A stretch of DNA of 64,000 nucleotides from Isurus oxyrinchus (taxonomy: Eukaryota): NCBI GenBank assembly GCA_026770705.1, contig JANJGN010000034.1, positions 7,130,001 to 7,194,000 on the forward strand, read 5' to 3'. The translations under genes and the position numbers were made by a program. Numbering within the stretch: position 1 is the stretch's first letter; the number at the start of each line of letters is the position of its first letter. Positions 1,039 to 62,345 of the stretch are shown one piece after another. A model generated the notes under the pieces. That model saw only the letters and a list, made by a program, of their open reading frames with translations. It ran no database searches and was not told the DNA's origin.

Positions 1039-1074
1039 AGATTCTAACGTGCCAAGAGTCTTTAAAGGATTCAG
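1039..1074 (+). CDS. 36-nt micro-exon EILTCQESLKDS
   Basis: tgttctag|AGATTCTAACG...GATTCAG|gtggga; 4 paralogous copies. Confidence 0.8.
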
Positions 1075-4000
1075 GTGGGAAATATATTTGTTATTTGTAA
1101 AGATATTCGCTGCACAAAATATTCCTGCAATTGCTACCGCACATGTAGAATACAGAAATGCTGATCAGTAATTTAATTGTACAGATGTAAACTTTGCCTG
1201 CATCATATAATTACCCAGTATAGAAAGAGGCCAACGCTTCACCTTACCTACTACTGCTATATGAAAGAGTTTTATTTCTCTCCATGTTTCTCTCTCTCTC
1301 TGATTAGCTACATTCCAGAAATCTTTTCACAAAACCTTCCAAACGCTTATTCTGCACAATAAGTTGTTGCTCCCTGCCCACCCCATCTGCCCCACCCTAT
1401 GATCTGTCTGTGAATAACCATGAATTTGTGTTTCTTTATTGCTGGTCGACCTGGATGCGAACCTTTTATTTGTTATTTAATTTCTTCAGAATGATGGTCC
1501 CATCATATTAGGCGACATTATCATAGAGTCCATTAACATTTTTGCGGTGATCAGAAAAATCTCAGCTCCCCTCCGCAGTTCTTATAACTGACGCCCCTCG
1601 TACTTTGGACTAAATCTTCCCTGAGCTCCCTGCACGATTTGCAAAGCTTTGCAAAGCGTGGTGCGTCGAATTTGAATATGATATCCTAAAGTGGCGCATA
1701 TTAAACAACAAACGTTGAGATGCTGCACTGTGTGTCGATGTACTGGTTAGATACATATCTTCAACAGTGAGTTCTCCATCAAATATAGATCCCGACTAAT
1801 GCGTGACACTGTTTGCTGAGCTGGTTGTCTGGCTGGGCGTGGAATGGACGCCGTTGTGATAGGGTCAGTTTCACGATACAGTCCAGGATCACTACTTACC
1901 TCAATATGTAGCATCATCTACATTATTGATTGTTGTGGACGTATGCATGCAGCAGCATGCATGACATAGCAGCATGTTAAAAATGTCAGTCCACTTGCAA
2001 TATTGTGCCTTTTCATATAAAACATCAATTCTTTCAATGATTGCATAATCTTCCTGTTAACGTCATGCCTTAACAGAAACAAAGCTGGAAGAAAAAGAAA
2101 AAGGTAGGCAGGTTAAGGATTCGCTGTTTTAAAAGACAGAAATCAACGTGTTAGGAACATACCTATGGGTCTTTTTTTCATGTTTAACTTCTCTGAAATA
2201 GCATTTAGAATTATTAACCGGAAGATCGGCTGAATTTGGTAATGGGCTACATGAGGAGAAAAAGTTTCAGCTTGAGGTGACAGCCAAAATTGAGAGCCAG
2301 TAAGTTAGGAGATAACATTAATCCAACCTCACACTCAGGAGGAAAGTATTGATCCAGGAAATGACAAGAATTTGGAATTCACTGTTGCATGATCCTTTGT
2401 TTTACGAAATTTCGTAGCATTTTTTAAGGTCGAGGACAGTTATCCACTGAGATCCCACGAATGTTTAATGTACCTTTTTATCACGGAGTAAATATCATGC
2501 CATCCGCAAAAAGATTTTACTTCAGCATTGTCAACTGCAGATTAATAGAACTCGTGCATTCTTAAGTACGTTTACCTCCTGCTTGCAGTCTGGTGTAAAG
2601 ACTGCTACTTCCACAAAAAAAAACGAAGCATTCCCTTGAGGACTTGTTCGGGCTTTGGGTTATGAATTGACCTCTAAATATCCAGACTGTGTTCCCTCAG
2701 GTGGTTTGCAGTCGTTGAAAGGGCCATCTGTGATGTGAATTGCATGCAAGCTTTAAGGAATGCTGTGTAGCAAACACTTTACAGTTCATGCACTAAATAA
2801 CAATTCAAACTAATTCTTAACCGAATACTAAAGCGGAGTCCGCCAAATCAGTATCTAGAACCTATTTAATTAACATCTACACGCACAAAGACATAGGGCC
2901 TAGTTAAACAAAGGCGCTACGAATTACACCGAAACATTTCCAGGTTAGCACGAAGTTTAAGTTCTCCAGCAAAGAAAATTCACGAATAAAACCAAGCCAA
3001 TGTCTATTGTAAAAAGTACGAGTTCGTCACCAATAAAATGCAGTTAGTAGAAGAATTTCAAATAATGCAACCCGCATTCCTGTATTCAACCTCTGTCTCT
3101 AACAGCATTGTAGGTTCCTGACATGATTGTTAAGAAGATTACCGGGCCAGTTTGATTGCTGTCGGGGAATGTAAGGATACTAAGTGGAGCTCTTCTGTAA
3201 TATGGACGAGGAAATGTAACTGATAGCCTTGACAATGTCATGATCCTTATAAACCAGTTGCTTTCTTTCTCTCTTAGAATTGAATGACATTCAACAGAAG
3301 TGCAGTGAGTATTCCATGAGCCAGCAGCCACCAAGACGTGGATTTCCCGATTTGTTATGAAGCCTGTACTGTGTAAAGAACTTATCCGTTGAGAAAACCT
3401 GTGCCTTGGGGGACAAAAATATATTCGAGTAATGGGATAAAAGCACATCACCTAGACCTGTGGAGAAAATGTCTGAAAGGAAATTCCGGTGTTACTTTCT
3501 TCCCTCAAGCTGTAGTGAATGGTTTGTCCTCGCTTCCAGCTTTTCAGCTGTGAGTCAGAAGACAGAACTTGTGGTCAGAAGGTTGTGAAATCAAGTCCAG
3601 AGTTAGAAGTTGAGCACAGGCGCAGATGCTGACAAGTCAGTGCAGCCCTCAGGCAGCAATGTATTGCAGGAAGTGCTGTGTAGCCGTTTAGTGCATAAAC
3701 CATGGCCAGGTCTGCACTCGAGCTTAGACGTAAATCACCCATTGCCATAGTTTAAAGAAACAAAGGGAAGTTTTCCACCGATGTGCTGGTGAATAATTAC
3801 CCCTTAATTAAATCTCACATAAGGTGGTTTTGGTCATCTTAAGATCCCTGCTGTGTTGGGCGGAACAAGTATCTGTGCCGAAACAGTTCATTCAGAGTGA
3901 TCATTAAATTACCAGCTTTAGGTTGGCAGATAGATCAGACGGACAATTGACAGATGACGTCTTATGCAGAAAATTGCGATCACATCATTTTTGTGGGAAG

Positions 4001-7000
4001 GATGAGTTGAGGCAATGCAAGGGAAAGTCTCAAAATCTAAATGGATTTCAGGGTGATTACCCCTAGATGTCAATTTGCACAAATTGCTCAGGGTAACAAG
4101 GCAGGTTAAATAGGCGGTTAAAAAAACTAAACCGGGCCCTAAACTTAATAAAGTGCGCCACACAGCACAAAGACATGCAGGTTGCAATAAGTGTATAGAA
4201 TACTGGGCGGGCCTCAATTTGAGAATTGTTTCCAATTCGGGACAACATTCTCGAGGAAAATGTGTACGCATTATAGAGTGCACACAAGTAATTTGTAAAA
4301 ATGATTCCAGGGATGAGAAGCTGCACTTACGTGCGTGGTTTGGACAAGTGTTCTTCACCTTGGTGAACAGAATATTAATAAACAATTTGATAGAAGTGAA
4401 CATAATCATTAGGATCCAGGAGAGAGCAAAAACAGGAGAGTTGTTCCGTTGGCAGGAATGGTCGAAAATCAGTGGAGACTGAGTTAAGGTAATTGACCTC
4501 ATAAACATTAGTGCCATGAGGGAGACATTTTCTTTGGCAGTGAGTTCTTAACATTTGGATTACACTGATATCGGTGCTGTGGAGGAATGTTCTATAGATG
4601 TTTTCAAAAGAGTATTAAATTATTATATCAAGAAGAGAGAAACTTCGGAGGAATGTTACTTAGAATTGTGGTGCAATGAGATGAAATGAAATTAATTGAG
4701 AGATCCATCACTGGCTCGAAATGTCGGATGGTTTCTCTCACTCTCTATCTGTCTGGCTCTCTCTCTCTCTCTCCCTCTCCCTCCCTTTCCCTCCCCCCCT
4801 CTCTCTCTCGCTCTCTCTCTCGCTCTCTTTTTCTCTCCCTCTCTATCTCACTCTCTATATGTTATACAGCTGTTTAGATAGATGNNNNNNNNNNNNNNNN
4901 NNNNNNNNNNNNNNNNNNNNNNNNNNNNNNNNNNNNNNNNNNNNNNNNNNNNNNNNNNNNNNNNNNNNNNNNNNNNNNNNNNNNNNNNNNNNNNNNNNNN
5001 NNNNNNNNNNNNNNNNNNNNNNNNNNNNNNNNNNNNNNNNNNNNNNNNNNNNNNNNNNNNNNNNNNNNNNNNNNNNNNNNNNNNNNNNNNNNNNNNNNNN
5101 NNNNNNNNNNNNGGTGCACGGACGGATGGATGGATGGATGGATAGATAGGTAGACAGACAGATAGTTAGATAGGTAGATAGCAATTGGACCTGACCGTAT
5201 AGGACAATTCCGTAGCATTTCTGAATGACACAAGGCATGGAGGTGCGGCAAACAAGCAGGTTGATAGCAAGCAACCGCATCAAGACATAAATAGTTGAGC
5301 AGCATAGGCATCAAGTGGTGGACCGAAATTAATGCACATAACTCTGATTTGATGCATTTTTACAAAACCGATAGAGGAGCACTAATACCCTTATCGAAAT
5401 GATTCTCATGTGCACAAATGAGTAGATAAGGAGCAAAATTTTTAAAATTTGTCTTTAAATACTACAAGGTTAACTAGCAAATTATTTGAATTCTTGGGCT
5501 TAAGAAGTGGAGGAATTTAGCACAAAAGTAGAATATTGTGCATAGCCTTTTGTATCTCTGGTTATGCCGCAGTTAATGTTGTTTAATGCGGCTATCAACA
5601 TATATTCGGAAGGAACGACTGATCATTAAGAGGTTGCTGAAGAGAATTGGCAGAATGGTTCCACATATAAGTGAATTTAATGATCATGGAAGATTGTTGG
5701 ACATACATTTATTTTCCTTAGAGAATAAAACGTGGAGAGGAGTTCTATAAGTTATTGCCAAGTTTGGGTAAGGGAGACAAAGAGATCCCGTTCAGATACG
5801 CTTAAGGTACCAGGCATGAGGAAGACACAATTTTCATATATATGCAAGGGTTGATTAGAAACTGTCAAAAGTCTCTAAAAGATTTAGGTAAGGAAAACTC
5901 TATTTATGTTTCTTTAGTCTTTCTTGCTAATCGTTTCTTTTTTAAAAAAAAATAATTCAATATATTTCAACGAGCTCCTAAACACTCCAGATTCTAAATC
6001 GGAATTATATAGTGATATGAGCGAGGAGCCTTTCCAGCGAAGTGTGACAATGTGAGGCAAATAGATTATATCCCACCGAATAATGTAGAAATCCGGCTGG
6101 ATGTTCTTGGCTAGTATATCAGGAATCGTGTTTTCATTTGAGGCATCTGTGCGAGGAAAAAATACATGTTTGGTTTTATTGAATTCAGTAGAATACATTA
6201 GCCTGGTAAATAATGGAAGAATGTTTAACGCTGTGACCGGGAACGAATTTCAACTGCTTCATGGAGCACAAAGTATGCACATCAACCTAAGGGTTATTTA
6301 ATACCATTTGGGAACAGCTTTACCAATCTCTTTTTTTAGGCATCATTTTAGGAACTGGTGCCTAGTATGCTATGACATGCTAATAAATTCCCAACAGCCC
6401 CAAAGGCCTCTAAGGATTTTTTTTAACTAATTACATACATTTAACAATTTACTTTCCATTTAACAGAAGAAACATATAAAGCAAAAGAGCAAGGTGAATA
6501 TTTGCTTACATCAAAGAGTGAATGCTCTGCATGTTGCATTTGTTTCTTTGCATCATTGAGCTAAGAGATTCGCAACGTAGTTGATACAAATTATTCGCAG
6601 CATCAGCCCGTGCCTCATAGTATGAAAGTATTCAATATGTTAGATATATAGGAGGCATTTGCACTGGTTGTAAATCAAAATCGAGAGTGTTATGTATTTG
6701 ACGATAGAATAGTCATAGATGAATACAATAGTTAATTCAGACATTAAGTCTGGACCTGGATATTGACAAAAACATGGACTTCTAGACGATATTGTAGATT
6801 TTATACAAAAACAGAATTACCTGGAAAAACTCAGCAGGTCTGGCAGCATCGGCGGAGAAGAAAAGAGTTGACATTTCAAGTCCTCATGACCCTTTGACAG
6901 AACTTGAGTGATTGTAGATTTTATGCTGCATAGCAAAGATGCATCTAAGAAGATGCTAAATATTTTAAGGAAGGTAGAAGGAACAGGAGATTTTCCTGAC

Positions 7001-10000
7001 GGTGGAAGTTGAAGCAGGGAGAGAGAATTTTTTTTTGAAACGTCACCAGTGATACCATCAGATTAGGTCCAATGATGTACTTCCAGTTTTGTTCACCTTA
7101 AGGCCTTGTTTACCATGAGAAATGCTGCATTGGATAGATTACATCTCCACAATGAATCCCAAAATTTGCTCATAATAGAAAGGAGAAAGAGGTGTAGTAT
7201 ATAATGGAAGGACAACTGAACGATGCTCATTTTAGATTGTTGCCTAAGGTAAATTTTAACTTCGTAATTTACACATTTTAAACATGTAGAATTCCTGCTA
7301 AATGACAGAAATTAGGATTTTTGCATAACATTTGCACATATTTCAGTGAGCACGGGGGCGTTTGAGGAACGGGACTTGCTGTGAATAAAGACAGGGCAGC
7401 AGGGTTTTGGACGGCTAAAATAACAAAGATCGTAGGGAGTCAGAAACAGACAGCTGTGCATTGCAGCAGTCAAATCTAGAGATAATGAAGGCATGGAGGA
7501 GGGTTTCAGCATCAGAGCCCCTGAGATGCAATTGAAGTCGAGGCTTGGACAGTCGCACCAAGGTCATGAAAAAACTGGATTAATCATGGACTGGGCCAGG
7601 GAAAGGGATGTGTTGGGTACTTAGGGAAGAGAGCTTGCAAGCGGCACCAAAATCAAGGGCTTCAGTCTTCCCAATATATATCATGGGGAAATTCAAATTT
7701 AGCTAGTACTGGATTCCAAATCAGCAGTCTGATAATTTAAACAGTGGAGAATTCGAGAGAGCTGGTGAAGAGGTAGATGTGTGTGTGTCATCAGCATGCA
7801 TGTGACAATTCATAGATTGCCTTCATATGTTGTTGTAAGGGGGGCAATTGTTGATTGTTGAGGGCAATAGTGGGCATCGTGTTGGAGCAGGAAAATATGC
7901 CATTTGCCACTAATCCTCAAGCTATAATTACATAGATAAAAACTGAATTTTGTTGGTTTGTTTCCATCCAGCAATAGGAGAGTAACACGTGTTGGAGTAG
8001 GGTGCTGGGTCAACTGTTTCAACGGTTTCAGACCGGAGGAGATGGGTGTGCATTGAATGTTTACTTTAGCCACAGACCCATGGTCTGCCTTTCAAATTAT
8101 GGTGAGTTAATAAAGTTTTGGGAGAGTGTGAAAACAGCCGATTTAAAGGAAAAAGGGAGCAAACATGAAGAGAGAAACCGTAAAAACATCGTCAAACTTG
8201 CTGCCAAGAGGTGTAGATGGTTGGCCTGCTGAGCATCGAGGGAAAAGGATATGGGTGCCATCGGTCAGGCAAGTTTGAAGAGAGCATGGACTGTCATTGG
8301 CATGAAAGTAGAGAAACGTGCGAATTTAAGGCTGGGGCAAGGAGGAGAATAGAAGGAAATTTACCGAGGTGGACAAGGAAAGAGAAATATGTAGCAGAAG
8401 CAGTTGGCCGGAGGTTTTCGATCTTAGTGACAAAGATATCAATCAGACCCTTAAAGTTTTTGTTGGAGATGAGGGTAGTAGGGACAGGAGGGAGGGATTT
8501 AAGTAGACATAGAGATCAGAATTACATTACACGATTATCCAGCAATTATGAGCGGTGGTGACTGCAATATCGAGAATGTCCAAGAGACCCCTAAAACTCC
8601 AGAGTAGGCTCATCCAAACCCACCTCATCTAACCTCATTTCACTAATTGAAAATCCGGAAGTTGATGTCACAATTTACAAGGATGTGAGTCGCTGTGGTA
8701 ATGCCTGAAAAATGAATTATTATGTGACATGTAATATGGAGGTTCTCCAATTTAGTGAACAATGTGAAATCATACCAGCTGGAAAATTATCAGTCATATC
8801 GACCTTCAGAGATCTGAACATGCAGAGGATATGAGTTTTCAGTGAAAATTAAGTGACCATTTCTTTTCTATTGACTTTATAGAGCTAAAGGATTGTCAAG
8901 ATATTCTGAACAATTTCGGTGAATAAAGCACTTTAATTGCATATGACATTATCAACTATTCACTTGTAAGAGTCCAACAATGCTTCAAAGAACAAGCAAA
9001 ATTTCCGAGTGAAATACAAATGCCTAAGTGCGCTTTTTTGAGAAAATGAATGTTTTATTAGCACAGCTTATGTGGAAATGTATGAGGCACCGTGGGGAAA
9101 CGGTTCAGTAGTTCCTTGCCACCACACTCCAGCACGTAATTAGTTCATGATTTGATAAACTTTCCACAGATATAAATCCTGCTCTGGCAGAAATGCCTCT
9201 TTGGTAAAAGCACAAGATGTAAATCAGCCAAAGGTACACTTTGTGACCGAAAAGGAAGCAGAATAAAGGTGCCAAATTCAGGCTAGTTAGCCCATAGTAT
9301 GTCATGGGAAAAATGCTGGAATCCATTATTACGTACCTAGTAGCAGCGTATTGAGAACACTAAAATCCATTCAACTGGAAGCACCATTTTTTTCTCTCAA
9401 AAGGATATAGTGTTTAACAAATCAATTAGTCTTCTTGCCGGATGTAACAAGCGGAGTTGGCAAAGGGAAACCGGAATAATCTTTGCCAAGAAAAAGCATA
9501 TCCAGTTAGGTGCCATATAAAAGTAAAAATAAATAATAATAGTTTATGGTGCTGTTGATAATGCAATACCATGCTCAGGAGATAGGTAACCTAACAGGAA
9601 ACAGAGAATATGGATAAACTTGTCATTTTCTGGTTGGAACATTGTAACTGATGGGATCAATAATAACTGTTCAACTGTTAAAAATATATCTACAACTTTC
9701 AAAAATACAGTCGATTGCATGGTTGCCAAAGTTGCTAGCGTTTGCAGAGGTGGGAAGGGAGCAAGCGGCGAGGAGAACACTTGTGGTCTGAAAATCAATG
9801 AAGATAGTTTAAGTGAATAATCAAAAAGAATAGCAGATGGAATGTGACATGGGAAAATGTGAGTTTGTAAGGAGGAACAGAGGAACAGGTTGTTAATGAT
9901 TGGAAAAAATATCAGAATACAGCATGGTGTCTCCTTGTACATGAGTCACAAATGAATATGCCATGAATGTAAAGCAAGAAGTTTGGCAGGAAAGCAGATT

Positions 10001-13000
10001 TTTGAGCTTTACAGTGCAGGTGATGGCGCTTAAAAGAAGGGAATTATTTTTCCGCATACCCAGGGTGGGACCTCATCTGGAGTATTGCAACGGCTACGAT
10101 TCCTTAATTGGACGGGCGAATGAGGTGGGTGTGGGGGGTAGGGTAAGGATTTGAGCAATATGCTTCCATTGGGGGCACTGAGTGAATGTGCAATCATTTT
10201 ACTTAGTGGATTTACTGTTACGAGTAAAGTTTGAGAACATTGCTCCTACATTCATTTCGGCTTAGCAAAATTAGTGGTGATCTTCCTGAAGCATACATGA
10301 TTCTCACAGGGCAGGTGCTAATATATTACAATCCTCTTGAAGGAGAATCAAAAGCTAGCAGACGCAGTTTCAACATAAGGCATCTTCAAGTTATGACAGA
10401 TTTTTTCCTTCACCGAGTCGTTAATATTCCAGTCACTACCGCAGAGGACAGAGTAGTCTGTGTTATCGAATATTTTATCAGACTGCATCTTAACCTACGA
10501 GGAAATTAATTCTTACGGGGATGATAATGTTATAAAAACAAAAAAGAACTGCTGAGGTTGGGAATCAGAATTGAAACAGAAAATGCTGCTGAAAATTAGC
10601 CGGTCTGGCAGCATCTGTGGAGAGCGAAAGGGGGATTAACTAATCGAGTCCATATGGCTCTTCTTCACAGCTGGTTATGGAGTTAAAACAGGGAAGTGGA
10701 TTTAAGGCACAACCAGATTAGATATATTCTTGTGGAATGGAGGGGAAGGTTAGAAGGGCCAAATGGCCTAACTATGCTACATTTTCTTATGTTTTTTAAG
10801 TTGTTAAGGGGCGACATCACTATTTGTCCTTTGTCAAAACTGCACATAGACAAAGTCTGTACCAGCTCCATTGGATTGAGAATTATAAATATCTGGTTGT
10901 AATCACAAGAATCTCAGAGTTTTACTCGTTCATCCAGACTGCTGAACACATTGTTTTCTTTTTGGGGGAAAAACCAAAGTAAATGAAGGGTAAAGACCTT
11001 AAAATTTGCTCTTGTTTGTACATCAATAACGCAAGCGACCAGTCAGTGATAGGCAGTAAAAGGAAGAGAGAGTTTTTAACTTTGCTACGGGATGTCTGAT
11101 ACCGAATTGCAGATCTTTGTTTTATGCTCAGTGAAAATCTACATCCTGTAACTTTTCTATTTCTTATATTTCCTTTACCGATTCACAGAAAATGTAAAGA
11201 AGGGTAAGTATAAGTATGTTACAGAAATTCAACTTGTAAAGCAAGATAAATAAGTTGCCCTAAAAATACATCTCTGGCGCAATTGCCCAATATCCCGTCT
11301 AGTGTCTTGCCTGATATCGAAGATAGAGTTATTTCCCTTTTTTCACGTCCCTCTGTGACAGCCCCCTCCCAATCTGTGTAACCTTCCACGGCACAGAAAT
11401 CCTTCTTAATCCACCCATTTTGCTTCCTTAATTTCCTATTTACTACTTTCCCAGTCCCCACCTCTACACGTTTAAGACATTCCCTAAAAACTGTGCCTCA
11501 GAGAGTTTAGCCTTGATACCTTTTATATCTCTCAACCTGTTCGTTGTGGTTCTGTTACCATTTGTTCCATATCGAAGTATGTTTCTGCCTTCTTCGTCGT
11601 TGTCTGTTTAGTAAAAGTATATTAATATCTTCAGCCAAATCGGAGGCAGGCTCATAACACATGAAGGTCCCCACGAGACTTTGGAGTCGAATGAACATTA
11701 GTCAGGATGTGACGTCTTTGAAAAATGTACCTTCTTAAGAGAACCTGGAAGGATGATTAAACACACACCTGATGGGCTTACATACTCATGCTGTTTCTTT
11801 CCGCCATCCAGAGCTAGGCAGCTGCCAAGATACCATAAAAGATTTAGGTGAGTAACCAGTTTTGATGCCTGCTGAATTTCCCGACCGTTTGCTTTACCCT
11901 TAAATCAAGCAAAGATCCAAGTGTTTCCAAAGCACAACGAAGAAAGAATGATCCTGGAGCATTAATGCAGATTTTTTTAATAGATGGTGAACTTTAAAGC
12001 AATGACAGATTTGTTCTGTATGGGGAGCTGAACTGTCAATCAAAGTGTTTTCTTGCAAATCTCGAACAGAAGCTTGGCAAGTCACTTTATGGATTGTTCA
12101 TTGTTCAGAACGATTCACTTAGATCATATCATGTATAAAACGTGGCCTGCGTTGGGGCACCAGTTGCTGGATTTCAATTGACAGACTGATGGAGGTTCAC
12201 GTGTGCATTCAGTTCCATGACTACAATGGAAGTGAATATTTGGGGTGGGTATATAATCTTCCCTCTCTACGACATCGAACATTTTGCCTGGCTCCCCAAA
12301 ATAGAAATTCATTATGTAGAGTTTGGTTTCAGTGATTGCTTTCACCCATATGGTACCGAATCAGCACTCACCATCACATATCGCCAATTTTAATTGTTGT
12401 TGGCTCCAAGGTTAAAAAAAAAGATCTGGACATTTTTCACAGAAAGTACGATAAAAAAGAATGGTGATATGACCTGAGGAATGTAGCTGCATTTATGTTA
12501 TCTCCATGCTCCATGGTGTGCATTTCCCTCTGATAGCGGCACGGCGAGGTAGAGAGGAAAACTTCACTATTTGTTCTTCTTTGAGCAATAAGATCGGTAG
12601 CAAGGTGCCAGCCCGCAGCGAATAAATGGCTGTTGTCAACTTTGCATGAGCTGTTCCATACAATTTTCACTGTGTTCCACGTTCTCAAGGAGAGTTGTGT
12701 TTGCCCTGCACTGTCGGCCACATGCAGAATATTTTCAATTTCAGTGATAACCTTTCCGAGGTAGGTCATGCAAACGTTCATTTTATTATTTATTCTTGAT
12801 TTATTTCACAGATAAATTAAAAAATGGTAAGTGAAAATATGCTCCAGCACGTGACCGTCTAAATGGATGAAAAGAAAGATGAGGAAAGATGGATTCGCAA
12901 TGATTACACATTTGAATTTAAAGTAACTTTTAAATTGCCATTAATATATCTAAATCCCTTTGTGGCCTCGCACTTCCAAAAATGCCATATGAATCCTCTG

Positions 13001-52000: not shown

Positions 52001-55000
52001 TACATCGTGTTTGGTTGGTGTTAGGCACGAGTGAGAGACAGACTTTTTTTGTGTATGATTGGACATCTGTGAGACCAATCCGTGCAGAGGTCGGAAATGA
52101 ATGTAGAAACCCCTGGAAATATTCAGCAGATCGCGAGAATATTCCAGGTGGGAGGAACAAACGTTGAAGTTTCAGGTCGAAGAGCCTTTCCAGCAAGCAG
52201 AAAGGGTCACATGGCACAATTTTTTAAAAGCACAGGAGTGTCGTAGCCAGTATTTATGGTTATCCAACAAAATAAAAGCAGCATTGCGTTTTTGTGGGTG
52301 GTGGTAATGGATGGGGTGTGGGTTGGCTGGTAGGGGGAGGTCGTGGCTAATTGGCTGCTGCATCACATACATTACCATTGTGGTTACAATTAAGATGTTT
52401 GTTATTGCGAAACACTTTGGAATGGCTGTGGTTGTGACGTCAATGACCAAGCTCAATGCTCTACTTAAATTAATACTTGCATCCAATGATAATGATAATG
52501 TTGACATGTTTGCAACATTGAAGCTATGAACCAGCTTAGCTACATCCAATGATAACTAAATACAAATTTCTAACATGTGAGGGGCTTCAATTATTTCAGA
52601 ATCAGTGATTTTAACTTTCACCTTTTGACAGAAGAGAACCTAAGAGCAGTAGAAAAAGGTAATGTGCTTAACAACTTCTTGTGTTAAAGAGATGCCAATT
52701 AGTTATGTATGTGATAATTGATTATTTCAGCCATTCTCCAAAGCGAATTATTATAAATTATTGCAAAAGCTATCAACTCAGCAATGCCGCATGAAGGAGT
52801 TTGGCAGAATATGTGTGGAGAAGATGATTTGTGGGAGATTCATAAACAAACACATATAACATAGTCTGATATGAATCCAATATGGAATTCACGAACTTTA
52901 TCTTTATACAGAGAATGTCCAACCTCTAGGTGTATAGCACGATGTAGGGAAGGGAAGCTTGATAAATGCAAGTGGGAAAAAGAAAGAAAAGATATTCTTA
53001 ATAGGGTGAAATGAAGTAGGGTAGCTGGAGTACCATGCGAAATATAAATGCCAATGGGTGGAATGTCTGCATAATGGCCTCTTTTTGCTCTGAAAATGTA
53101 GTATAATTTTTCCATTTTGTGCGATTTAAAATGTGTATACCCAAAATTACCCCTCAATAGGCACTGGGCTGATTTTTGCTTCCCCTAACTGTAACAGATT
53201 ACCAAATGGTGCAGGGTATTGAACAGGCAAAAGTTGCATATCACCCTTTTTACGTTAGCTTCCAAAGTTAGACTTCCTCCTGCTGTTAGCTTTTTAGGAA
53301 GTTTATATTTTTTTTCAACACAGAAGACTGCAGGATATTAACTTTCTACAGAATATTGGAATACGAACTCTGAATCCAACCCTCTAACTAACAAGAATGG
53401 CAAGAATAACTTGCTCCTATATGGCACGGTTAACATTACAGAACGTCGGCAAATGCATCAAAATATCGTAGTAAACAAACAATTGATGGAGCTCTCTATA
53501 AGGCTACATTTGAACTCTTGGTGAAAAGTTTGATCAAAGAGTTAGGCACTAAGAGGCATCTTAAAAGGGGAAAGACGGGTAGAGGGGCATCTATTCGGAA
53601 AGGTTTACTGATTCTGTGATGCAGCAGCTGAATTCAGTGTTGCAATATTGTAGCAATTAATATCGGGGTGCATTAAATGGCTAGAATTACATTTTGGTGA
53701 GCTCAGGTGCAGAAAGAGATTAAAAAGCTAGCGATGGCTGAGGCCATCGAGGGAATTGGAACAAAAAGAATAAATTAGCATTTTAATACCAAGGCATCTC
53801 TTTCCCTGGAACTTGCTATATAGCTGTCGCTGTTACTTGATTGACTGAAATGAATTTTCTGTCTGCATTCATTATTTTGAATTGCATGAAGTTTGCTGCA
53901 CAGCAACAGGCAATTTGGCCCAAAAGGTCCAAGCTGACATGCATTCTCTGCTCGGGGAGCATCGTCGGATTGCAAGTGGGTTAGAATTTACAAATAGTGG
54001 AAATAATTTTAATTGCACGAAGAAGCTTGGTTCAAAACAATAAAGAGTTAACAGGTCCATATCGAAGAAGAACATATGCACTGGCACTGCAGAAGCTCGA
54101 AAAAAATACAATGCTGAAATGGGAACTCTGAGATCGTAACCATTCGCAATGAATGAGCAGACTGTTTTCCATAGTTGCAGAAAGCAGACGATGATGTGCT
54201 GGTCCTGATAGGTCATCGGACCAATGAAGAAATTTGGTAGTGTAAACATAAAGAAAATTCTTTGATGTGCAAGGGAATTGAGAAAGCGTACTTCAATGTA
54301 AAATCACCACTAATGCACCCTATCGAGGTTTTAGAGAACGTTTCTTTACAGTGAATAATGATACAGTGGAATTCGCTACAACAATGAGAGGCTGAAGCAA
54401 TAGCACACGATCGTTTAAAATCACAGATGACAATGAAATAATTGTTGCAAAGAGGGACATTCAGCCCGTTGTGTCAGCAGTCTGTCAGCGCATCCCTTGC
54501 AAGCTCCACTCTCCTTTCCTTGTTGCCCAGTACTTTCAACTCTTTGGATGTTTAACTAATTCCAGTTTGAAAGCCATTATTGAATCTACCTCGACTAAAT
54601 TTCAGGCATTGCATTGCAGATCTTAACCATTATTGTATGCCAAATAAATGTACTTCTTGTCGCCGTTCTAAGCATCCTAATTTTACGTTCGCTTGTTCTT
54701 GACTCTTCTACCAACTACAAAAATGAACATACGAACACACTAACCAGGGGCAGGGTTATTCCGTTGCCCCTTCAAGCTTGCTCCGCCAATCAGCAAGACT
54801 ACGCGTGATTGAATTGTAACCTCTTGCGCACTCACGGTAACCTTTCACCCCCTTGTTATTCATGAATCTACCTAGCTCTGCCTTTACAATAACAAAAGAC
54901 CCTGCTTCCACTGCCGTTTGAGGAAAACAGTTCCAAAAACTCTCGGCCTTCTGAGAATAAAAATCTTCTCACCTCTCTTTATAATGAGCAACACCTTATT

Positions 55001-58000: not shown

Positions 58001-61000
58001 AATTATTAATAAGCATAAAATCAAGTAAATATTTTACAGGCTCGTCAATAAAAAAAGGCTCTGATGGGGTAGTACGATTAAAAGAGAGAAAGCAAAATGT
58101 AACTTAAATCAAAGGAAATAGTCTATACGAACGTATGAGTTAGGAGGACAATTAGGCCATTCTGCCCCACGATCCCGCTCCCACTTCCAATAGGATGATG
58201 ATAAATATGGCTCTGTCCTCATGTCCACATTCTCGCCTATCCATGAAATCCATTCACCCGGTTGTTCGTCAATGATCTATCTACCTCTTTCTTGAAAAAG
58301 TCATAATCAACCGCCCTGCTTCCAGCATTCGCTGGGGGAGGAAAACCCAAATGGAAACAATTATCTAAAATACACGCACAAAATCTTCCCATGTTCGCCT
58401 CAAATTGCAGACACCTTATTCTTAATATTGGCATTCACACTGAATGGTGAGAGGAGAAATGGGATAGGTGCGTTTAAAATAAAAACAGGTAATTCAGTCG
58501 ACCAAAGAACAACAGAGAATATAACCCCTGCCCCCGATCGATGGCGTCTGCATACTGTAAAAGATTCTGTAGAAGAAAAATAACTGGAAATATTACGCAT
58601 ATTTCATAGCTTGTAAGAAAAAACTGGAACAGCGGAATTCTTGTTGAAAATTGATGTAATTTCCATATTCATGAAAGAGACAAAACTTCTTCTTGACAGT
58701 CTTCTTAAAATTGGGGCGGGATAATAATGGAATACCTATTCAATAAGGTAATAGAAGAACATCTGCCATGGTTAACAGGAGTCACACACGCAGACACACA
58801 CACAAACAGATAATGTATGCGGATATATATGGGTGTACACATGTTTGGAAATAATGCTGATGAAGTGCCAGGTTTTTCAAATGGCCTTTGAACGGCTTTT
58901 ACAGTGTGCATCAATGAATGAGGTGTGATAATGTGTAGTCAGGTGACAAGAAACGGGCTGGAATGCTTAACTGGCTTCAAGACAGAAAACAGAGACTGAG
59001 AGTAAAGGTGGGTTATTCAGAGTGGCAGAAGGTGAACGTGGTTTTCCAGAAGGATCTTTGCTTGCTCCAGTATTATTTACTATTCCTTTTAACGACTTTG
59101 ACTTTGGAGTCAGAAACTCCATTTCTAAATTTGTGGCGTTCAGCAAAATGGGGAGAAAGTCAAAAGAGAAGTGCATTGCAACAAATTGCATGAAGACATG
59201 GTTAAACTTGGAGAAAGGACAAACAATTGAAAATGAACTCGAATACAGATTTGTGTAAGACACTACGTTCTGGTAGGAAGCATACTTGCTTTTTTTGAAA
59301 CGTTGAAGTCTTGGCAGGATTAAGGAAAGTAGGGGTCCGGTCTACAAATGCAGCAATCGCTAAAAGTTTCATCACTGGTGAAGAAGATCACAAAACAAAA
59401 TAATCACGAAACTTAGTTTCTGCAGGGATGTAATTTCAGAATGTTATGCTGAACCAAGAAATACATCGGGAATCCCGCAAAAAATCGTCTTTACCTAAAT
59501 GAATAGCATAGATGCATTCAAGAGGAAGCTAGATAACTATATAAGTGAGAAGATGATATAGGCTTTGAATGATAAATTTAGATGAGGAAATAAAGAAGGA
59601 ATTTTAACTGAAGCCTTAGCGCTTGATGGGCTGAAATATCTCTCTTTGTGATGTACATCCTAAGCATAACTGTAGTAAATTAAATAACCTAATTCTTATT
59701 TAAACAAGGACGAATAATCTACTACTGTTTCTATTGCTAATGTATTTAACTGTGTAGAGTTAGTTAACTAAATTTATGACTGAAACAGCAGCCATGTAAA
59801 CAAAAAATTGTTTATCTTTGCAATAAGTTACAATGATTGGCAATTTGTTCCGTCATCTGAATACAAGCAAATAAACTGACATATTCCTGCTCATTCCAAC
59901 GGGACTGGTGGGAGAATTGTAAAATTCATCGCCCATCTAAGGTAACATTTCGGCGTAAATTTCTAGACCCTTTCTGCACTGAGCCCGATGTAATAATTTC
60001 ACTTTTATCCTGCTAAACATTGTGTTTCGTCGGAAAAAATCTCTTCATACCTTACTTTTCCTTAGAGCTCGATGAGGTACAGCAAAAGTGCAGTAAGTAT
60101 TCGTTACTGCGGTGATGTATTATTTATTTCTGCCGAGATATTTCGACTTCCTGAGCACGTGTTTTTGTGCTGGCGTCCTCTTGTAATTCAGGAATCGTCG
60201 TGTAAAATTCCCCCAAAAACTATCTCCGAAACAATGGTACAAAGTTTCACATTCGGAAGTTCTTGCATTGAGTTCAAGAAGTTACTCAGTTTGTAGTCCG
60301 ACAGAGGTCAATGCTTTGCCAAAAGTTGAAATCTTCTCCGATCAAAACCGCTGTTACTTCATCGGAACAGCTTCTGCAATTGAAACATTTACTGCACGAA
60401 GAGATGTTCTGAGAGATGTTAAACATGCTGTGCAATTGACGCCAGTCTTCCTTTAAATTGGAATGCTGATGTACAGTTGTTTTGCAGATACAGGGATTGA
60501 GTGGCAAGATGAGTTATTCCTCCCCGGCCTCCCATGATGCACTCGCTCAACTTGCAGATTATTTATACTCGACGTGATTGACCCTGTAGAGATGTTAGAC
60601 AACTACCCTGCCAAGAAACGCGTCCCATTTAAATGTCCTCTCTGTGTTGGTCCTCGCTGGACAAGCATAGAAAGGGATCTACAACTTGGCTGGGTAAATT
60701 TGGAGGTGGACATTTTAAATTTCCAGGGTTACATTTGCTTAGCCGTATAAGAAGGAAGGCAGATCGTAAAAAGTAGATTCTTGTTGGTGTCATATATCCC
60801 ACCTGACCATTTGCAAGGATGTCTTGAATGTACACTTCTGGTAACATAAATAGAGTAATAAAACCAATCGGAGAAAATGTGATAAGCATTAAATGTCCTA
60901 TCAGAACTGAGACGGTTTTGAAGTTCTTAAGATTCGGCACAGTGAAAATTATTGCACTCATGGCAGCGGGTGAGAAGGGGGCGTAAACAGTCAATTAATA

Positions 61001-62345
61001 TGATAGTCCATAACAGATCGAATATGGGCTACAAAAAATGCACCTTCACTTTTTGAGTGGCTCGAACATAAATTTTCTCACTGCAGGTAACAGTCACGCC
61101 TGATAACATACATACATGCAAAAGGAGAATGACGCATATAAACCGAATTATTCATAGGGTTAAATCGAGACTGGAAGAAAGAGGCCCATCTGATTCCTTA
61201 ACACTGATATCGTGGATTTGAGCTGACTGTCCTGTTTATTTTCTGTTACTAATTCTACGTAACTCTAGTACGCATATATTGAAGAAATGTTATCCCTTTT
61301 TGCAACTTTCTATCACTCCCACTCACCCCAACACCACCCTCCATCACCCCACCCCTCCCCACTTAACCCTAAAATGGTTCTGGACTCAAGTCTCTTGCAA
61401 GCCGGACAGGGGAGTACCAATTGCTCCTTGCGTGAAGGTCCTGGCCAAAAGTACGCATTACATGGACTGTTATAACTCGCCCTGCCGCAATTGAAATCAT
61501 GTTCTACTAATGGATATAACAATTCAGTCACAGTATCTGCTCCAGTAACGTCATGTGTCAATAACAGGCCGACGGTCGAACTATTCTTGTAACTCTTACA
61601 GAAGCTGATCACGACCAAAAAGCTGAGGGTAAAGTACAACATCAAATGTGCAGTATTTCGTTTCCATTGCATTGACTACTGGCCACATGTTAGGGAAATA
61701 GTTGAATTTAATGACAGCGGACACAGTGTCCATTGTCGTCTTGTTGCCAGGGAGGGTGTTGGAACCTCGTTCTGGATCAGAGGCCTCAGCATAAAACTTC
61801 AGCTACCACCCCGAGTAAACGTTTACGTGGCTATACTGCCCAGTCGAACGTTGAATCTTTCAGGTGAAGTATTAAACTGTAATCGTTCAACTGTGCTCTG
61901 GCATTGGCATAAGGACCGAACGGAAAATAAAAGAACATGAAAGGAATTGTCCTCGTGTTGTTGAGCACTGTATACCTATGAAGAATCATTGCAAGGTGAT
62001 TATTGGTATAATATCGCTTTCAGGTTTTTCGGAGCTCGCTCTGTGTAAAATAACTCTTGTGTTTTCTTTATTATTAGCGTGTGTGTTTTCTTTATTATTA
62101 GCGTGAATGCATTTCCAAATGTGGGCCAGGCGATGTCGCATGTCCTGAGAATGTGACGGGCACCACAACAATTCTCACACACACCTGAAATGAAACAAGA
62201 ATGGTTGATGTGCCAGCATGCCAACAGTAATGACAACATAATTGAGGCGACGTTTGAGGGGAAATGTTGGTATTTGATTGCTTAAATAACCTTTCAACTG
62301 TTTATTTTAAAATACAAGAATTCGGCAAGAAAATTGGAGAATTAG
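1039..62345 (+). CDS. Internal part of a multi-microexon gene encoding a Cys-containing coiled-coil rod (33 exons, 951 nt, 317 aa in window; no start or stop exon identified)
   Basis: All 33 exons have an AG acceptor and GT donor, length 15/27/36 nt and phase 1-1. They join without stops into an E/K/L/Q-rich heptad sequence. Exon length and splice dinucleotides are kept across duplicated copies whose introns carry many substitutions and indels. Confidence 0.88.
2077..2103 (+). CDS. 27-nt micro-exon ETKLEEKEK
   Basis: ccttaacag|AAACAAAG...GAAAAAG|gtaggc; 4 copies. Confidence 0.85.
3278..3304 (+). CDS. 27-nt micro-exon ELNDIQQKC
   Basis: ctttctttctctcttag|AATTGAATG...AAGTGCA|gtgagt; strong sites; 3 copies plus homolog at 60066. 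Confidence 0.9.
3550..3880 (+). mobile_element. Degenerate tRNA-derived SINE (SacSINE1/Deu-SINE-like); paralogs at ~26170-26500 and ~42850-43190
   Basis: gtcagaaggttgtg...tcaagtcc...ttgagcac...gctgac...gacgtaaa...ccattgcc resembles the shark SINE consensus as recalled; not aligned. Confidence 0.55.
4733..5180. repeat. (CT)n plus (GATG/GATA)n microsatellite containing an assembly gap (N 4885-5112)
   Basis: Directly visible; paralogous tracts at ~27345-27650 (closed) and ~44045-44610 (gapped). Confidence 0.95.
5480..5790 (+). mobile_element. CR1-type LINE 3' fragment; paralogs at ~27950-28260 and ~44910-45220
   Basis: Degenerate CR1 ORF2 C-terminus (ctctggttatgccgcagtt; ttttccttagag...gctgagaggaga). 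Confidence 0.55.
5849..5887 (+). pseudogene. Chimeric/truncated exon relic (xLIRNCQKSLKDL), 39 nt if the weak AAG acceptor is used
   Basis: The 3' part NCQKSLKDL|gtaagg matches the 36-nt exon family. The 5' part matches intronic sequence at ~45271-45287. It lies on the 16.8-kb duplication breakpoint. Confidence 0.6.
6467..6493 (+). CDS. 27-nt micro-exon KETYKAKEQ
   Basis: ttccatttaacag|AAGAAACA...GAGCAAG|gtgaat; identical copy at 28991. Confidence 0.85.
6805..6910. mobile_element. Short Penelope-type repeat insertion with 14-bp target-site duplication
   Basis: attgtagattttat at 6791-6804 and 6911-6924; empty site in the paralog (~29315-29330); family assignment from recalled similarity. Confidence 0.8.
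7340..8560 (-). mobile_element. Degenerate L2-type LINE fragments; paralog at ~29730-31120
   Basis: Minus strand near 7785-7805 reads HMHADDT (RT YADD-like motif); paralog reads FHMHADGTHI. Confidence 0.6.
8883..8918 (+). CDS. 36-nt micro-exon ELKDCQDILNNF
   Basis: ttgactttatag|AGCTAAAG...AATTTCG|gtgaat. Confidence 0.85.
9290..10500 (+). mobile_element. Degenerate CR1 LINE; paralog at ~31870-33090
   Basis: gggaaaaatgctggaatccattatt and RVGPHLEYC (CR1 LVRPHLEYC-like) motifs; many stops. Confidence 0.65.
10535..10672. mobile_element. Older copy of the Penelope-type short repeat; paralog at ~33120-33260
   Basis: aaacagaaaatgctg...ggtctggcagcatctgtggagag...cgagtccatatg, similar to the 6805 and 25656 insertions. 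Confidence 0.65.
11189..11203 (+). CDS. 15-nt micro-exon ENVKK
   Basis: long pyrimidine tract ...attcacag|AAAATGTAAAGAAGG|gtaagt; identical exon at 33760. Confidence 0.85.
11812..11847 (+). CDS. 36-nt micro-exon ELGSCQDTIKDL
   Basis: ccgccatccag|AGCTAGGC...GATTTAG|gtgagt. Confidence 0.88.
12812..12826 (+). CDS. 15-nt micro-exon DKLKN
   Basis: ttatttcacag|ATAAATTAAAAAATG|gtaagt. Confidence 0.85.
13640..14330 (+). mobile_element. RTE-type LINE 3' remnant; paralogs at ~19554-20030 (5'-truncated) and ~36160-36860
   Basis: Degenerate GHIVRL..IRLTKQILFS...RRTRGGQ...VLKSNIK, KWHQAV and a terminal C-x2-C...HLR zinc-knuckle-like end. Confidence 0.7.
15050..15610 (-). mobile_element. CR1 LINE fragment; paralogs at ~20750-21310 and ~37570-38120
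   Basis: Antisense CR1 3' motifs (actagtggttaaac...ccataa; ccaaaatgtatcacttca). Confidence 0.5.
15683..15718 (+). CDS. 36-nt micro-exon ELSDCQQAVKDL
   Basis: gaatcacag|AGCTGAGC...GACCTAG|gtgagc; 3 copies. Confidence 0.87.
16131..16157 (+). CDS. 27-nt micro-exon EEKLTAKEK
   Basis: cccgaacag|AGGAAAAAC...GAAAAAG|gtacct; weak donor, but kept in 3 copies. Confidence 0.78.
17821..17856 (+). CDS. 36-nt micro-exon EILTCQESLKDS
   Basis: acttttctag|AGATTC...GATTCAG|gtggga; identical to exon 1039. Confidence 0.8.
18861..18887 (+). CDS. 27-nt micro-exon ETKLQGKEK
   Basis: ccttgacag|AAACAAAG...GAAAAAG|gtaggc. Confidence 0.82.
21387..21422 (+). CDS. 36-nt micro-exon ELSDCQQTVKDL
   Basis: gaattacag|AACTAAGT...GACCTAG|gtaagc. 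Confidence 0.85.
21849..21875 (+). CDS. 27-nt micro-exon EEKLTGKAK
   Basis: cccgaacag|AAGAAAAAC...GCAAAAG|gtacct. Confidence 0.75.
23493..23528 (+). CDS. 36-nt micro-exon ENLTCQESLTDS
   Basis: actattctag|AGAATC...GATTCAG|gtggga. Confidence 0.77.
24522..24548 (+). CDS. 27-nt micro-exon ETKLEDKEK
   Basis: tcttgacag|AAACAAAG...GAAAAAG|gtaggc. Confidence 0.82.
25656..25795. mobile_element. Short Penelope-type repeat insertion with ~11-bp target-site duplication
   Basis: actaaatggag (25645-25655) and actaaatgtag (25796-25806); empty sites at ~3180 and ~42482. Confidence 0.8.
25895..25921 (+). CDS. 27-nt micro-exon ELNDIQQKC
   Basis: ctctcttag|AATTGA...AAGTGCA|gtgagt; only 2 synonymous differences from exon 3278. 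Confidence 0.88.
28317..28355 (+). pseudogene. Dead copy of the chimeric exon relic (xLIRNGQKALKYL)
   Basis: Donor reads tttag|gagagg (GT lost); Cys codon TGT->GGT. Confidence 0.7.
28530..28592. repeat. (TA)n-rich microsatellite expansion
   Basis: Absent from the paralogous site at ~6065. Confidence 0.9.
28991..29017 (+). CDS. 27-nt micro-exon KETYKAKEQ
   Basis: ctctttaacag|AAGAAACA...GAGCAAG|gtgaac. Confidence 0.82.
31454..31489 (+). CDS. 36-nt micro-exon ELKDCQDILKDF
   Basis: gactttgcag|AGCTAAAG...GATTTCG|gtgaat. Confidence 0.85.
33760..33774 (+). CDS. 15-nt micro-exon ENVKK
   Basis: tattcacag|AAAATGTAAAGAAGG|gtaggt. Confidence 0.82.
34369..34404 (+). CDS. 36-nt micro-exon ELGTCQNTLKDL
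   Basis: ctccaccttccag|AGCTAGGC...GATTTAG|gtgagc. Confidence 0.86.
35351..35365 (+). CDS. 15-nt micro-exon DKLKK
   Basis: tgtttcatag|ATAAATTAAAAAAAG|gtaagt. Confidence 0.83.
38199..38234 (+). CDS. 36-nt micro-exon ELSNCHQAVKGL
   Basis: gaattacag|AGCTAAGC...GGCCTAG|gtgagc. Confidence 0.8.
38645..38671 (+). CDS. 27-nt micro-exon EETLTAKGI
   Basis: accgaacag|AAGAAACAC...GGAATAG|gtacct. Confidence 0.68.
40303..40338 (+). CDS. 36-nt micro-exon EILLCQEALEDS
   Basis: actattctag|AGATTC...GATTCAG|gtggga. Confidence 0.77.
41329..41355 (+). CDS. 27-nt micro-exon ETKLQGKEK
   Basis: ccttgacag|AAACAAAG...GAAAAAG|gtaggc; identical to exon 18861. Confidence 0.82.
42579..42605 (+). CDS. 27-nt micro-exon ELNDFQQKC
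   Basis: ttcaatcttag|AATTGA...AAGTGCA|gtgagt. Confidence 0.85.
44155..44565. repeat. ~20-bp minisatellite (gagagaaaaatagattgata)n running into an assembly gap (N 44322-44565)
   Basis: About 8 imperfect units visible. Confidence 0.9.
45700..48460 (+). mobile_element. Long decayed CR1-group LINE (RT region)
   Basis: KPANYRSICILS, QFGFRQ, ALDIK and GVPQGSVLGP...ADD motifs in broken frames. Confidence 0.85.
50125..50151 (+). CDS. 27-nt micro-exon KADLGVKDS
   Basis: tttttttctcttgcag|AAGCAGAT...GATTCAG|gtaagc; consensus sites. Confidence 0.85.
50190..50520 (+). mobile_element. Degenerate SINE (same family as 3550)
   Basis: gttggctcagc...acactctc...ggtttcaaat tRNA-like head and similar body. Confidence 0.4.
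50755..50790 (+). CDS. 36-nt micro-exon EKNDLQTKLQKC
   Basis: ctcattttcag|AAAAAAATG...AAATGCG|gtgagt. Confidence 0.82.
51000..52200 (-). mobile_element. Possible decayed Penelope-like element
   Basis: Weak RT-like remnants on the minus strand; a terminal segment at ~52105-52195 resembles the short repeat. Confidence 0.3.
52632..52658 (+). CDS. 27-nt micro-exon EENLRAVEK
   Basis: caccttttgacag|AAGAGAAC...GAAAAAG|gtaatg; homologous to the EEKLTAKEK family. Confidence 0.85.
54480..55870 (-). mobile_element. Nested CR1 LINE 3' fragments
   Basis: ORF 55085-55300 YRALVNAHLECHARYW...RRFTK..PG..GLS..ERL.RL.LY..EFRRVRGD is the CR1 ORF2 C-terminus. Confidence 0.85.
57480..59620 (+). mobile_element. 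Fragmented CR1 LINE
   Basis: NWLQDRKQR.RV...SEW...GFPEGSLLAPVLF...ND.D.GV.NSISKF (RT core) at 58960-59140. Confidence 0.75.
60066..60092 (+). CDS. 27-nt micro-exon ELDEVQQKC
   Basis: cttacttttccttag|AGCTCGAT...AAGTGCA|gtaagt; homologous to ELNDIQQKC. Confidence 0.88.
61602..61628 (+). CDS. 27-nt micro-exon KADHDQKAE
   Basis: gtaactcttacag|AAGCTGAT...GCTGAGG|gtaaag; homologous to KADLGVKDS. Confidence 0.78.
62058..62105. repeat. Perfect 24-bp tandem duplication
   Basis: tgtgttttctttattattagcgtg x2. Confidence 0.95.
62319..62345 (+). CDS. 27-nt micro-exon EFGKKIGEL
   Basis: ttttaaaatacaag|AATTCGGC...GAATTAG|gtgagt; AAG acceptor, strong donor. Confidence 0.65.
   Translation, partial: NSARKLEN

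Follow-up and report, generated by a model that had tools for sequence, protein, structure and literature searches.

The window analyzed here, a stretch of 64,000 nt from the Isurus oxyrinchus genome (4.98 Gb; contig JANJGN010000034.1, termed C34, positions 7,130,001-7,194,000), is probably the middle of a single protein-coding gene of about 1.04 Mb, in which micro-exons are spliced to a B30.2 exon and the resulting rod with its B30.2 domain acts as a length-tunable spacer. This gene, gene B, spans C34 ~6,459,146 to 7,496,962 (1,037,817 bases), and the part of the window that carries exons (1039..62345, plus strand) corresponds to its middle ~6%. In the mechanism that we propose, about 300 phase-1 micro-exons of 21, 27, 36 and 15 nt would be spliced to the terminal B30.2 exon, and the product would be a roughly 3,000-residue parallel coiled-coil dimer, ~0.4 µm long, with two B30.2 heads at its end. 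Since all exons are symmetric phase 1, duplication, loss or skipping of any one of them leaves the frame intact, which makes the rod length tunable. The length would change through intragenic duplication and deletion and probably also through alternative splicing, and the rod would serve as a long spacer for bivalent binding of a ligand or pathogen.

A splice-site scan combined with homology, by which the exon set was rebuilt independently, gave 33 AG..GT exons on the plus strand of the window with AG and GT present in 33/33: 17 exons of 27 nt, 12 of 36 nt and 4 of 15 nt. Together they comprise 951 nt or 1.49% of the window, which bears out the share of about 1.5% given in the sequence-only reading of this DNA. 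When spliced in phase 1, the exons yielded 316 whole codons that included 16 Cys but neither a stop nor a Pro, and the residues E, K, L and Q accounted for 57%; the alternative frames contained 39 and 15 stops. The single stop-free, proline-free and E/K/L/Q-rich frame described earlier was thus recovered, but the 317-aa rod protein deduced from it is only a slice, about a tenth of the product of roughly 3,000 aa.

The 36-nt Cys exons are located at 1039..1074 (type ILTCQ), 8883..8918 (LKDCQ), 11812..11847 (LGxCQ), 15683..15718 (LSDCQ), 17821..17856, 21387..21422, 23493..23528, 31454..31489, 34369..34404, 38199..38234 and 40303..40338; in the 36-nt exon at 50755..50790 the Cys is at the end. 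Exons of 27 nt are found at 2077..2103 (type TKLE), 6467..6493 (ETYK), 16131..16157 (EKLT), 18861..18887, 21849..21875, 24522..24548, 28991..29017, 38645..38671 (with weak sites), 41329..41355, 50125..50151, 52632..52658 and 61602..61628, and with a Cys at the end at 3278..3304 (type LND..QKC), 25895..25921, 42579..42605 and 60066..60092. The last exon of the window (62319..62345, 27 nt) has a weak acceptor (-6.9), and the CAAG that precedes it also precedes the 5/5 paralog copies listed on C34. The 15-nt exons are at 11189..11203, 12812..12826, 33760..33774 and 35351..35365.

The first 45 kb of the window (1..45287) consist of nested intragenic tandem duplications with offsets of ~5.7, 16.8 and 22.5 kb and 82-88% identity, which multiply the exon modules, as expected for the proposed length expansion by tandem duplication. 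An additional class of 39-nt Cys exons, beyond the 33 reported before, is a candidate at 5849..5887, where AG/GT is intact and the acceptor is very weak (score -6.8). The class is decaying: a second copy at about 28317..28355 is dead by a change of the donor from GT to GA, and a third, at the end of the duplicated block (approximately 45206..45320), is disrupted at ~45276. Units of 48 nt that resemble exons (43663-43710 and homologues) were rejected because they evolve neutrally; also rejected was 58411-58446, which is hydrophobic, present in a single copy and without a profile match. TC/GATA microsatellites and a 20-nt tandem repeat occupy positions 4734-4856, 5125-5181, 27347-27606 and 44046-44321, which are homologous intron positions of three duplicated copies. 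The two masked N stretches of the window are intronic and adjoin two of these microsatellite sites. A direct repeat of 160 bp (85% identical; 46414-46573 and 46780-46940) is located in the long intron beyond the duplicated region.

We counted all AG..GT units of 12-60 nt over 724 kb on both strands, untrained and with no protein filter. Units of 27 nt numbered 78 on the plus and 13 on the minus strand, and those of 36 nt 90 and 7. A mild plus-strand excess was seen at 15 nt (23/13) and 21 nt (11/2), and for all other lengths the plus-strand count never exceeded 18. In the window itself the plus/minus counts were 13/2 at 27 nt, 7/0 at 36 nt and 4/0 at 15 nt. A trained exon profile gave 222 matches on the plus strand and 1 on the minus strand; as this count is partly circular, we relied on the untrained length count. 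The excess in strand and length is more than chance.

The duplications also allowed a test for selection. Homologous loci were gathered by their flanks, so that intact copies were not favored, and this gave 24 exon families with 140 loci, of which 137 were intact. Two more small families had no aligned flanks and were omitted, and the totals do not include the 39- and 48-nt classes. Distinct changes were counted at the 122 loci with both flanks aligned and compared with the expectation from the adjacent-intron rate. Synonymous changes amounted to 38 (33.2 expected) and nonsynonymous changes to 90 (126.8 expected, P 4e-4). There were 0 stops for 11.4 expected (P 1e-5), 0 indels for 17.1 expected (P 4e-8), and 2 splice-dinucleotide changes, one of them GT>GC, for 26.4 expected (P 1e-9). 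A 27-nt exon with a GC donor at C34:7,386,090-7,386,116 is otherwise identical to its duplicate. We concluded that length, frame and splicing of the exons are under strong constraint and the residues under modest constraint. For the rod as a whole, dN/dS is about 0.6, and modest constraint on the residues is expected of a spacer. The youngest duplicate pair, 97% identical, has kept its exons. The statement that lengths and splice sites are kept in every copy holds for the 33 exons and fails for the 39-nt class, which is broken in 2/5 derived copies.

The exon types of the window continued through all DNA that we read upstream and downstream. The 706 kb read contiguously (C34:6.790-7.496 Mb) contained 244 curated exons, that is 216 profile matches (5 overlapping or doubtful 15-mers dropped) and 28 exons added by hand; 114 of them measure 27 nt and 107 measure 36 nt. 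They encode 2,439 aa with 1 Pro, 102 Cys and no stop or frameshift. Ten 5-kb samples, which cover 50 of the 265 kb in the gap at 6.525-6.790 Mb, held 9 exon-like units, and we estimate ~300 exons and ~3,000 residues for the whole of gene B. The array starts at C34:6,459,146 with eight clear 21-nt heptad exons, the first of which carries an in-frame ATG. It ends with exons of 24, 30, 21 and 27 nt, followed by an open terminal exon at C34:7,496,442-7,496,962, 302 kb downstream of the window, and the junction from the final 27-nt exon into this B30.2 exon is in frame. No second B30.2 was found between C34 6,396,336 and 7,496,441 among 150 scored of 370 candidates. Decayed LINE-like reverse-transcriptase fragments lie in an intron near the 3' end of gene B (C34:7,488,263-7,491,250), and the catshark RefSeq model XP_038668997 has taken up such sequence as a false N-terminus.

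The inclusion of all exons in one mRNA, which we infer from the genome sequence, would make the array a single gene. It is very unlikely that the array represents several genes, or chance splice-like words multiplied by segmental duplication, although a gene boundary is conceivable in the sampled gap at 6.525-6.790 Mb. Such an origin is at odds with the plus-strand and length excess, with the selection on the exons and with the many non-duplicated exons of the array that match the same exon profile, and also with the single terminal exon, the colinearity with a paralog and the RefSeq homologues described below. The hidden gene of symmetric phase-1 micro-exons that had been proposed is supported by the in-frame array of 244 exons and by selection on the 24 exon families. 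Fourteen sequencing runs were listed as sharing words of the B30.2 exon and 3' UTR, six of them with 0.42-0.43; none was recorded as RNA, and they have no bearing on expression. The same is true for two possible RNA runs, which covered only repeats in C34:6,455,001-6,465,000.

The terminal exon belongs to the B30.2/PRY-SPRY superfamily. Pfam SPRY (PF00622) matched with E 3.5e-12 and 46.9 bits (cut-off 26.3); Pfam PRY gave no match, yet alignments of sequence and fold cover the PRY part. Among solved sequences the B30.2 domain of BTN3A1 was nearest (E 3.7e-20), and the predicted model (pLDDT 76) reached TM values of 0.7-0.78 to TRIM7, TRIM15, TRIM21 and BTN3A1. Between gene B and paralog A, dN/dS of the B30.2 exon was 0.41. 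The advice to search the flanks for a B30.2 exon was correct.

The hydrophobic residues of the rod showed a periodicity peak at 3.5 residues with a power of 7.2 (10.7 for the part in the window, 0.9 after shuffling). The module of a 36-nt and a 27-nt exon encodes 21 aa or three heptads, and we compared 73 distinct modules. Positions 2, 9 and 16 are a positions with Leu, Ile or Val, while the d positions are 5 (Cys in 51/73), 12 (mostly Leu) and 19 (Lys in 61/73). The earlier description as a Cys-studded coiled coil agrees with this register. In modules of a 36-nt and a 15-nt exon the Cys spacing is 17 residues and the register is broken by three residues, which may represent a stammer. Work on model peptides indicates that parallel dimers can form interchain disulfides well when Cys is at d, and here the Cys of both chains would face each other and form an interchain disulfide ladder. 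The length of ~0.4 µm is based on the coiled-coil rise of 0.148 nm per residue. The rod contains 8 N-glycosylation sequons (7.6 expected), that is no enrichment, and the chimaera protein XP_042192744 is depleted with 2 for 9.3 expected.

Seven divergent B30.2 exons were found in this genome, five on C34 and two on C21. Those on C34 lie at 7.496 Mb (gene B), 6.396 (paralog A, 92%), 4.817 (C, 58%), and at 3.474 and 2.709 (minus strand, 45%); those on C21 lie at 89.72 and 91.35. A 27-nt exon pattern gave 20 reverse and 50 forward hits. They mark an exon array ahead of each of the five C34 domains and another at C21:89.8-91.3 Mb, and about 24 of all hits are scattered elsewhere. At C21:89.8-91.35 Mb the 27-nt exons run toward the B30.2 at 91,348,263. 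The B30.2 relatives on C21 sit in a large cluster of TRIM/butyrophilin type (C21 82-118 Mb).

We also searched 1.84 billion representatives with the B30.2 domain by HMMER. The best single-domain matches came from chondrichthyans and bear names taken from TRIM39, TRIM58, A33 or "nuclear-pore anchor". In a quick, unrooted IQ-TREE analysis of 7 rows from this genome and 61 hand-chosen from 150 matches, 16/68 rows formed a rod-plus-B30.2 clade on one side of a branch with SH-aLRT 99. Its relatives are XP_042192744, XP_038668997, XP_038672308, XP_055510696, XP_069775385, XP_042191567, XP_078422387 and XP_060706632; XP_038671249 (Scyliorhinus, 945 aa) was joined to the clade by motif only. For seven clade relatives Pfam reported SPRY only, with one weak PRY, and no RING, B-box or Ig. 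The 36-nt profile matched XP_042192744 (Callorhinchus, 1,697 aa, "nuclear-pore anchor-like") 6 times, compared to 0.26 in shuffled sequence, and had 0 matches in 9/9 control proteins. RefSeq isoforms of chimaera, catshark and Narcine differ by internal 9-aa blocks (10 pairs compared), and between two chimaera models 8/19 differences were exactly 9 or 12 residues, which lends indirect support to 27- and 36-nt exons in the relatives. Such RefSeq models rest partly on RNA.

These models resemble gene B in the B30.2 clade, in a rod N-terminal to the domain and in the 9- and 12-residue blocks, but they are short and probably incomplete, and their names refer to TRIMs, butyrophilins or myosin. Judged from the protein sequences, the rod-plus-B30.2 family is old among chondrichthyans, with RefSeq members in sharks and rays and back to chimaera. 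It had been stated that no family could be assigned; a chondrichthyan clade can now be named. The idea of a lineage-specific, length-expanded protein is correct as to the expansion and incorrect as to the family, which dates back to chimaera. In searches up to 2,000-2,970 aa we found no relative nearing ~300 exons or ~3,000 aa. A word search for longer proteins with B30.2 alone returned 0 of 893 candidates, a search so insensitive that known relatives were missed; with the B30.2 alignment it gave 36 matches and one new clade member, and with the chimaera rod only that rod's own two models. Profile searches are topped by proteins that carry multiple B30.2 domains in tandem, in up to 8 stretches, and of which those with names are from teleosts; as tested, they fall outside the rod family. 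The rod-plus-B30.2 family was described nowhere in a literature search that covered titles and the starts of abstracts, mostly outside subscription journals.

Paralog A covers about 4.83-6.40 Mb of C34 (~1.55 Mb) and may hold more exons than gene B; at 5.89-6.17 Mb it shows a tandem expansion with a repeated unit of ~28 kb. The array of gene B was colinear with paralog A. The 22 kb upstream of gene B match paralog A at 78%, and then the alignment jumps: gene B lacks a 240-kb block that is present in paralog A at C34:4,850,373-5,091,193. The deletion junction is precise (C34:6,455,835-6,455,840) and contains no N gap. Contigs of a relative (~93% identical) begin at the junction and then continue unlike gene B, so that the loss of the block is either recent or an assembly fault. 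In two other sequencing runs the first ~860 bases of C34:6,455,001-6,465,000 were almost uncovered, a hole that proves nothing. Samples of the extra block in paralog A held further rod exons. Ahead of these are two phase-1 exons of 30 and 111 nt, which when joined in frame encode a 13-residue hydrophobic stretch followed by Arg-Arg. These two exons are a candidate leader of paralog A. They have no second copy in the genome, and conservation could therefore not confirm them.

A start-codon exon was not established for paralog A or gene B in the DNA read, and tblastn with the N-termini of the relatives found no leader exon. One candidate first exon (C34:6,449,506-6,449,547; ATG, hydrophobic, phase-0 donor) was rejected, as it has no partner exon, a weak donor in A and no third copy. 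A strong donor conserved in A and B (C34:6,440,475 and 4,834,602) lies within a well-conserved stretch and possibly marks an untranslated first exon.

As gene B lacks the block with the candidate leader, it may be leaderless or recently disabled. If disabled, it would be a copy whose leader was taken by the 5' deletion and whose exons were conserved by past selection, and paralog A would do the work. The precise junction with no N gap, the relative (~93% identical) that does not continue across it and the decay of the 39-nt class are consistent with such a loss. We consider it unlikely, however, since 244 exons and the B30.2 exon are free of stops and frameshifts, the 97%-identical pair keeps its exons, and the upstream region is retained; with a phase-1 first exon upstream, the deletion would keep the frame.

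Exons for other domains were searched for in several ways. No TM-like symmetric phase-1 exon turned up along gene B or in the 5' region of either paralog, a result with which a short N-terminal anchor may be compatible. Ig PF22705 had no match on C34 between 2.5 and 7.5 Mb among 37 matches of 110 scored. With a home-made Ig HMM only a downstream nectin-like V exon was matched in the DNA read, which covers gene B apart from 215 kb, and samples of the extra block of A; since this HMM missed a broken nectin-like copy, its sensitivity is limited. For B-box PF00643, 150 of 2,300 candidates were scored and none of these lies on C34, which is a lower bound, and an HMM for RING/B-box built from 53 TRIMs had no match in the DNA read.

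The nectin/PVR-like IgV exon (C34:7,513,514-7,513,960, plus strand, V-set E 1.2e-10) is located 17 kb beyond the B30.2 exon. At C34:6,424,340-6,424,612 a copy of it, 77% identical and interrupted by a TGA, marks the end of the A/B duplication unit, and further relatives are present at C34:13.07-13.73 Mb. We rejected this IgV as the ectodomain of the gene: in the pattern searches the intact copy is not followed by rod exons, and none lies before gene A. Neither an Ig nor a TM exon was found, which leaves the suggested stalk or tail of a receptor unsupported in that form.

Since neither the DNA read nor the limited genome searches revealed exons for RING, B-box, Ig or TM, gene B is neither a TRIM nor a butyrophilin. 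TRIM proteins (TRIM39, TRIM21, finTRIM) share with it a coiled coil and a C-terminal B30.2 of the same fold, whereas gene B has no RING/B-box match and a rod that is ~20 times longer and made of micro-exons. Butyrophilins (BTN1A/2A/3A, ERMAP type) have, like gene B, short coiled-coil exons that lead into a 27-nt exon and then into one terminal B30.2 exon, but IgV (plus IgC) and a TM exon precede their heptads, neither of which was found for gene B. The analogy to butyrophilin and BG drawn earlier is correct, and gene B is comparable to their intracellular module; as in butyrophilins, its heptad micro-exons are followed in frame by a 27-nt exon and one B30.2 exon. BST2/tetherin and PLVAP have a type II TM anchor and a disulfide-linked ectodomain with no B30.2, and gene B has a B30.2 and no TM exon that we could find; the likeness of the rod to them is an analogy only. 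The nearest architecture may be that of the enterophilins, guinea-pig cytosolic proteins with a long leucine zipper and B30.2 and no known Ig or RING. Their zipper comprises tens of heptads and is not known to carry a Cys ladder. Enterophilin-1 is a partner of SNX1 (PMC13749957).

Chicken BG and zipper protein also have a long coiled coil from many split-codon micro-exons, and BG tails carry 27-38 repeats on 21-nt exons with variable copy number (PMC5938342). Gene B starts with 21-nt heptad exons as in BG tails. BG differs by IgV and TM, is described as lacking a 30.2 domain, and nearly all its tail exons measure 21 nt; they are about ten times fewer than the exons of gene B, with one conserved Cys instead of one per 17-21 residues.

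Where the protein may reside was judged from N-termini of the family and from the rod. By hydropathy, a short hydrophobic N-terminal start is present in XP_055510696, XP_042192744 and XP_060706632 and as a candidate in paralog A, and none was established for gene B; most other RefSeq clade members have no leader, and these models are possibly incomplete. The hydrophobic stretches of the relatives cover ~11-15 residues, with a best 19-mer hydropathy of 1.59 (XP_042192744) and 1.48 and 0.93 in the others. We give the view that the family is secreted via a short N-terminal leader and carries a disulfide ladder close to an even chance, and regard it as somewhat more likely than a cytosolic location. 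The missing sequon enrichment and the intracellular B30.2 domains of TRIMs and butyrophilins speak against secretion.

An N-terminal signal-anchor with rod and B30.2 in the cytosol, comparable to a butyrophilin tail lacking Ig or to a golgin-like tether, appears rather doubtful to us. In this case no disulfide ladder would form, and the Cys would function as small residues of the core or as sites of redox or acylation. A strongly basic run comes directly after the hydrophobic start of XP_042192744, which is the pattern of a signal-anchor whose C-terminus is cytosolic; Arg-Arg also follows the candidate leader of paralog A, and the sequon counts of the rod would fit. Butyrophilin tails likewise consist of a few cytoplasmic heptads and B30.2 (PMC5938342, PMC12841164), and BG tails carry a conserved Cys (PMC5938342). 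The hydrophobic stretches are short for an anchor, however, no TM-like exon was found, and the Cys occupy one core position in 51/73 modules.

A soluble cytosolic rod, at least for gene B, is improbable. It would be a leaderless cytoskeletal or trafficking scaffold similar to enterophilins or zipper protein. The lack of A's candidate leader exons in gene B, the in-frame ATG in the exon at C34:6,459,146 and the starts of XP_038671249, XP_069775384 and XP_038672306, which have no leader, are in line with it, and a soluble BG tail regulates actin-myosin (PMC5938342). The hydrophobic starts in three relatives and paralog A argue against it, and the leaderless RefSeq models may be 5'-incomplete.

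A role in immune recognition may be suggested by B30.2 precedent, the tandem expansion and the C21 members among domains of TRIM/BTN type. We propose only tentatively that this is an undescribed chondrichthyan family of extracellular B30.2 recognition proteins on secreted, disulfide-laddered rods of up to about half a micrometre, encoded by genes of 0.3-1.6 Mb with 300-400 micro-exons; the reach of these proteins would depend on which exons are duplicated, deleted or skipped in frame. Titin, for comparison, has 363 exons. If the family is secreted, its B30.2 domain would serve recognition outside the cell, at the end of a disulfide-linked rod, which would be a surprise for shark immunologists. 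A class of very large genes has been hidden, as annotation leaves misnamed fragments of it: most of C34:2.7-7.5 Mb is taken up by a tandem series of at least five members, and two more B30.2 relatives are on C21. The butyrophilin/BG design of heptad micro-exons and B30.2 would have had a third outcome in cartilaginous fishes, Ig-less and RING-less. The family also offers a natural test of how symmetric micro-exons change the length of a protein ruler, and of the splicing of ~300 exons of 15-36 nt. In the ESM Atlas, chordate clusters of 1,277-1,802 aa with coiled coil and PRY/SPRY scored 0.90-0.93 (features) to two family members; they may belong to the family itself or represent similar proteins of other fish, and are a lead only for a design wider than chondrichthyans.
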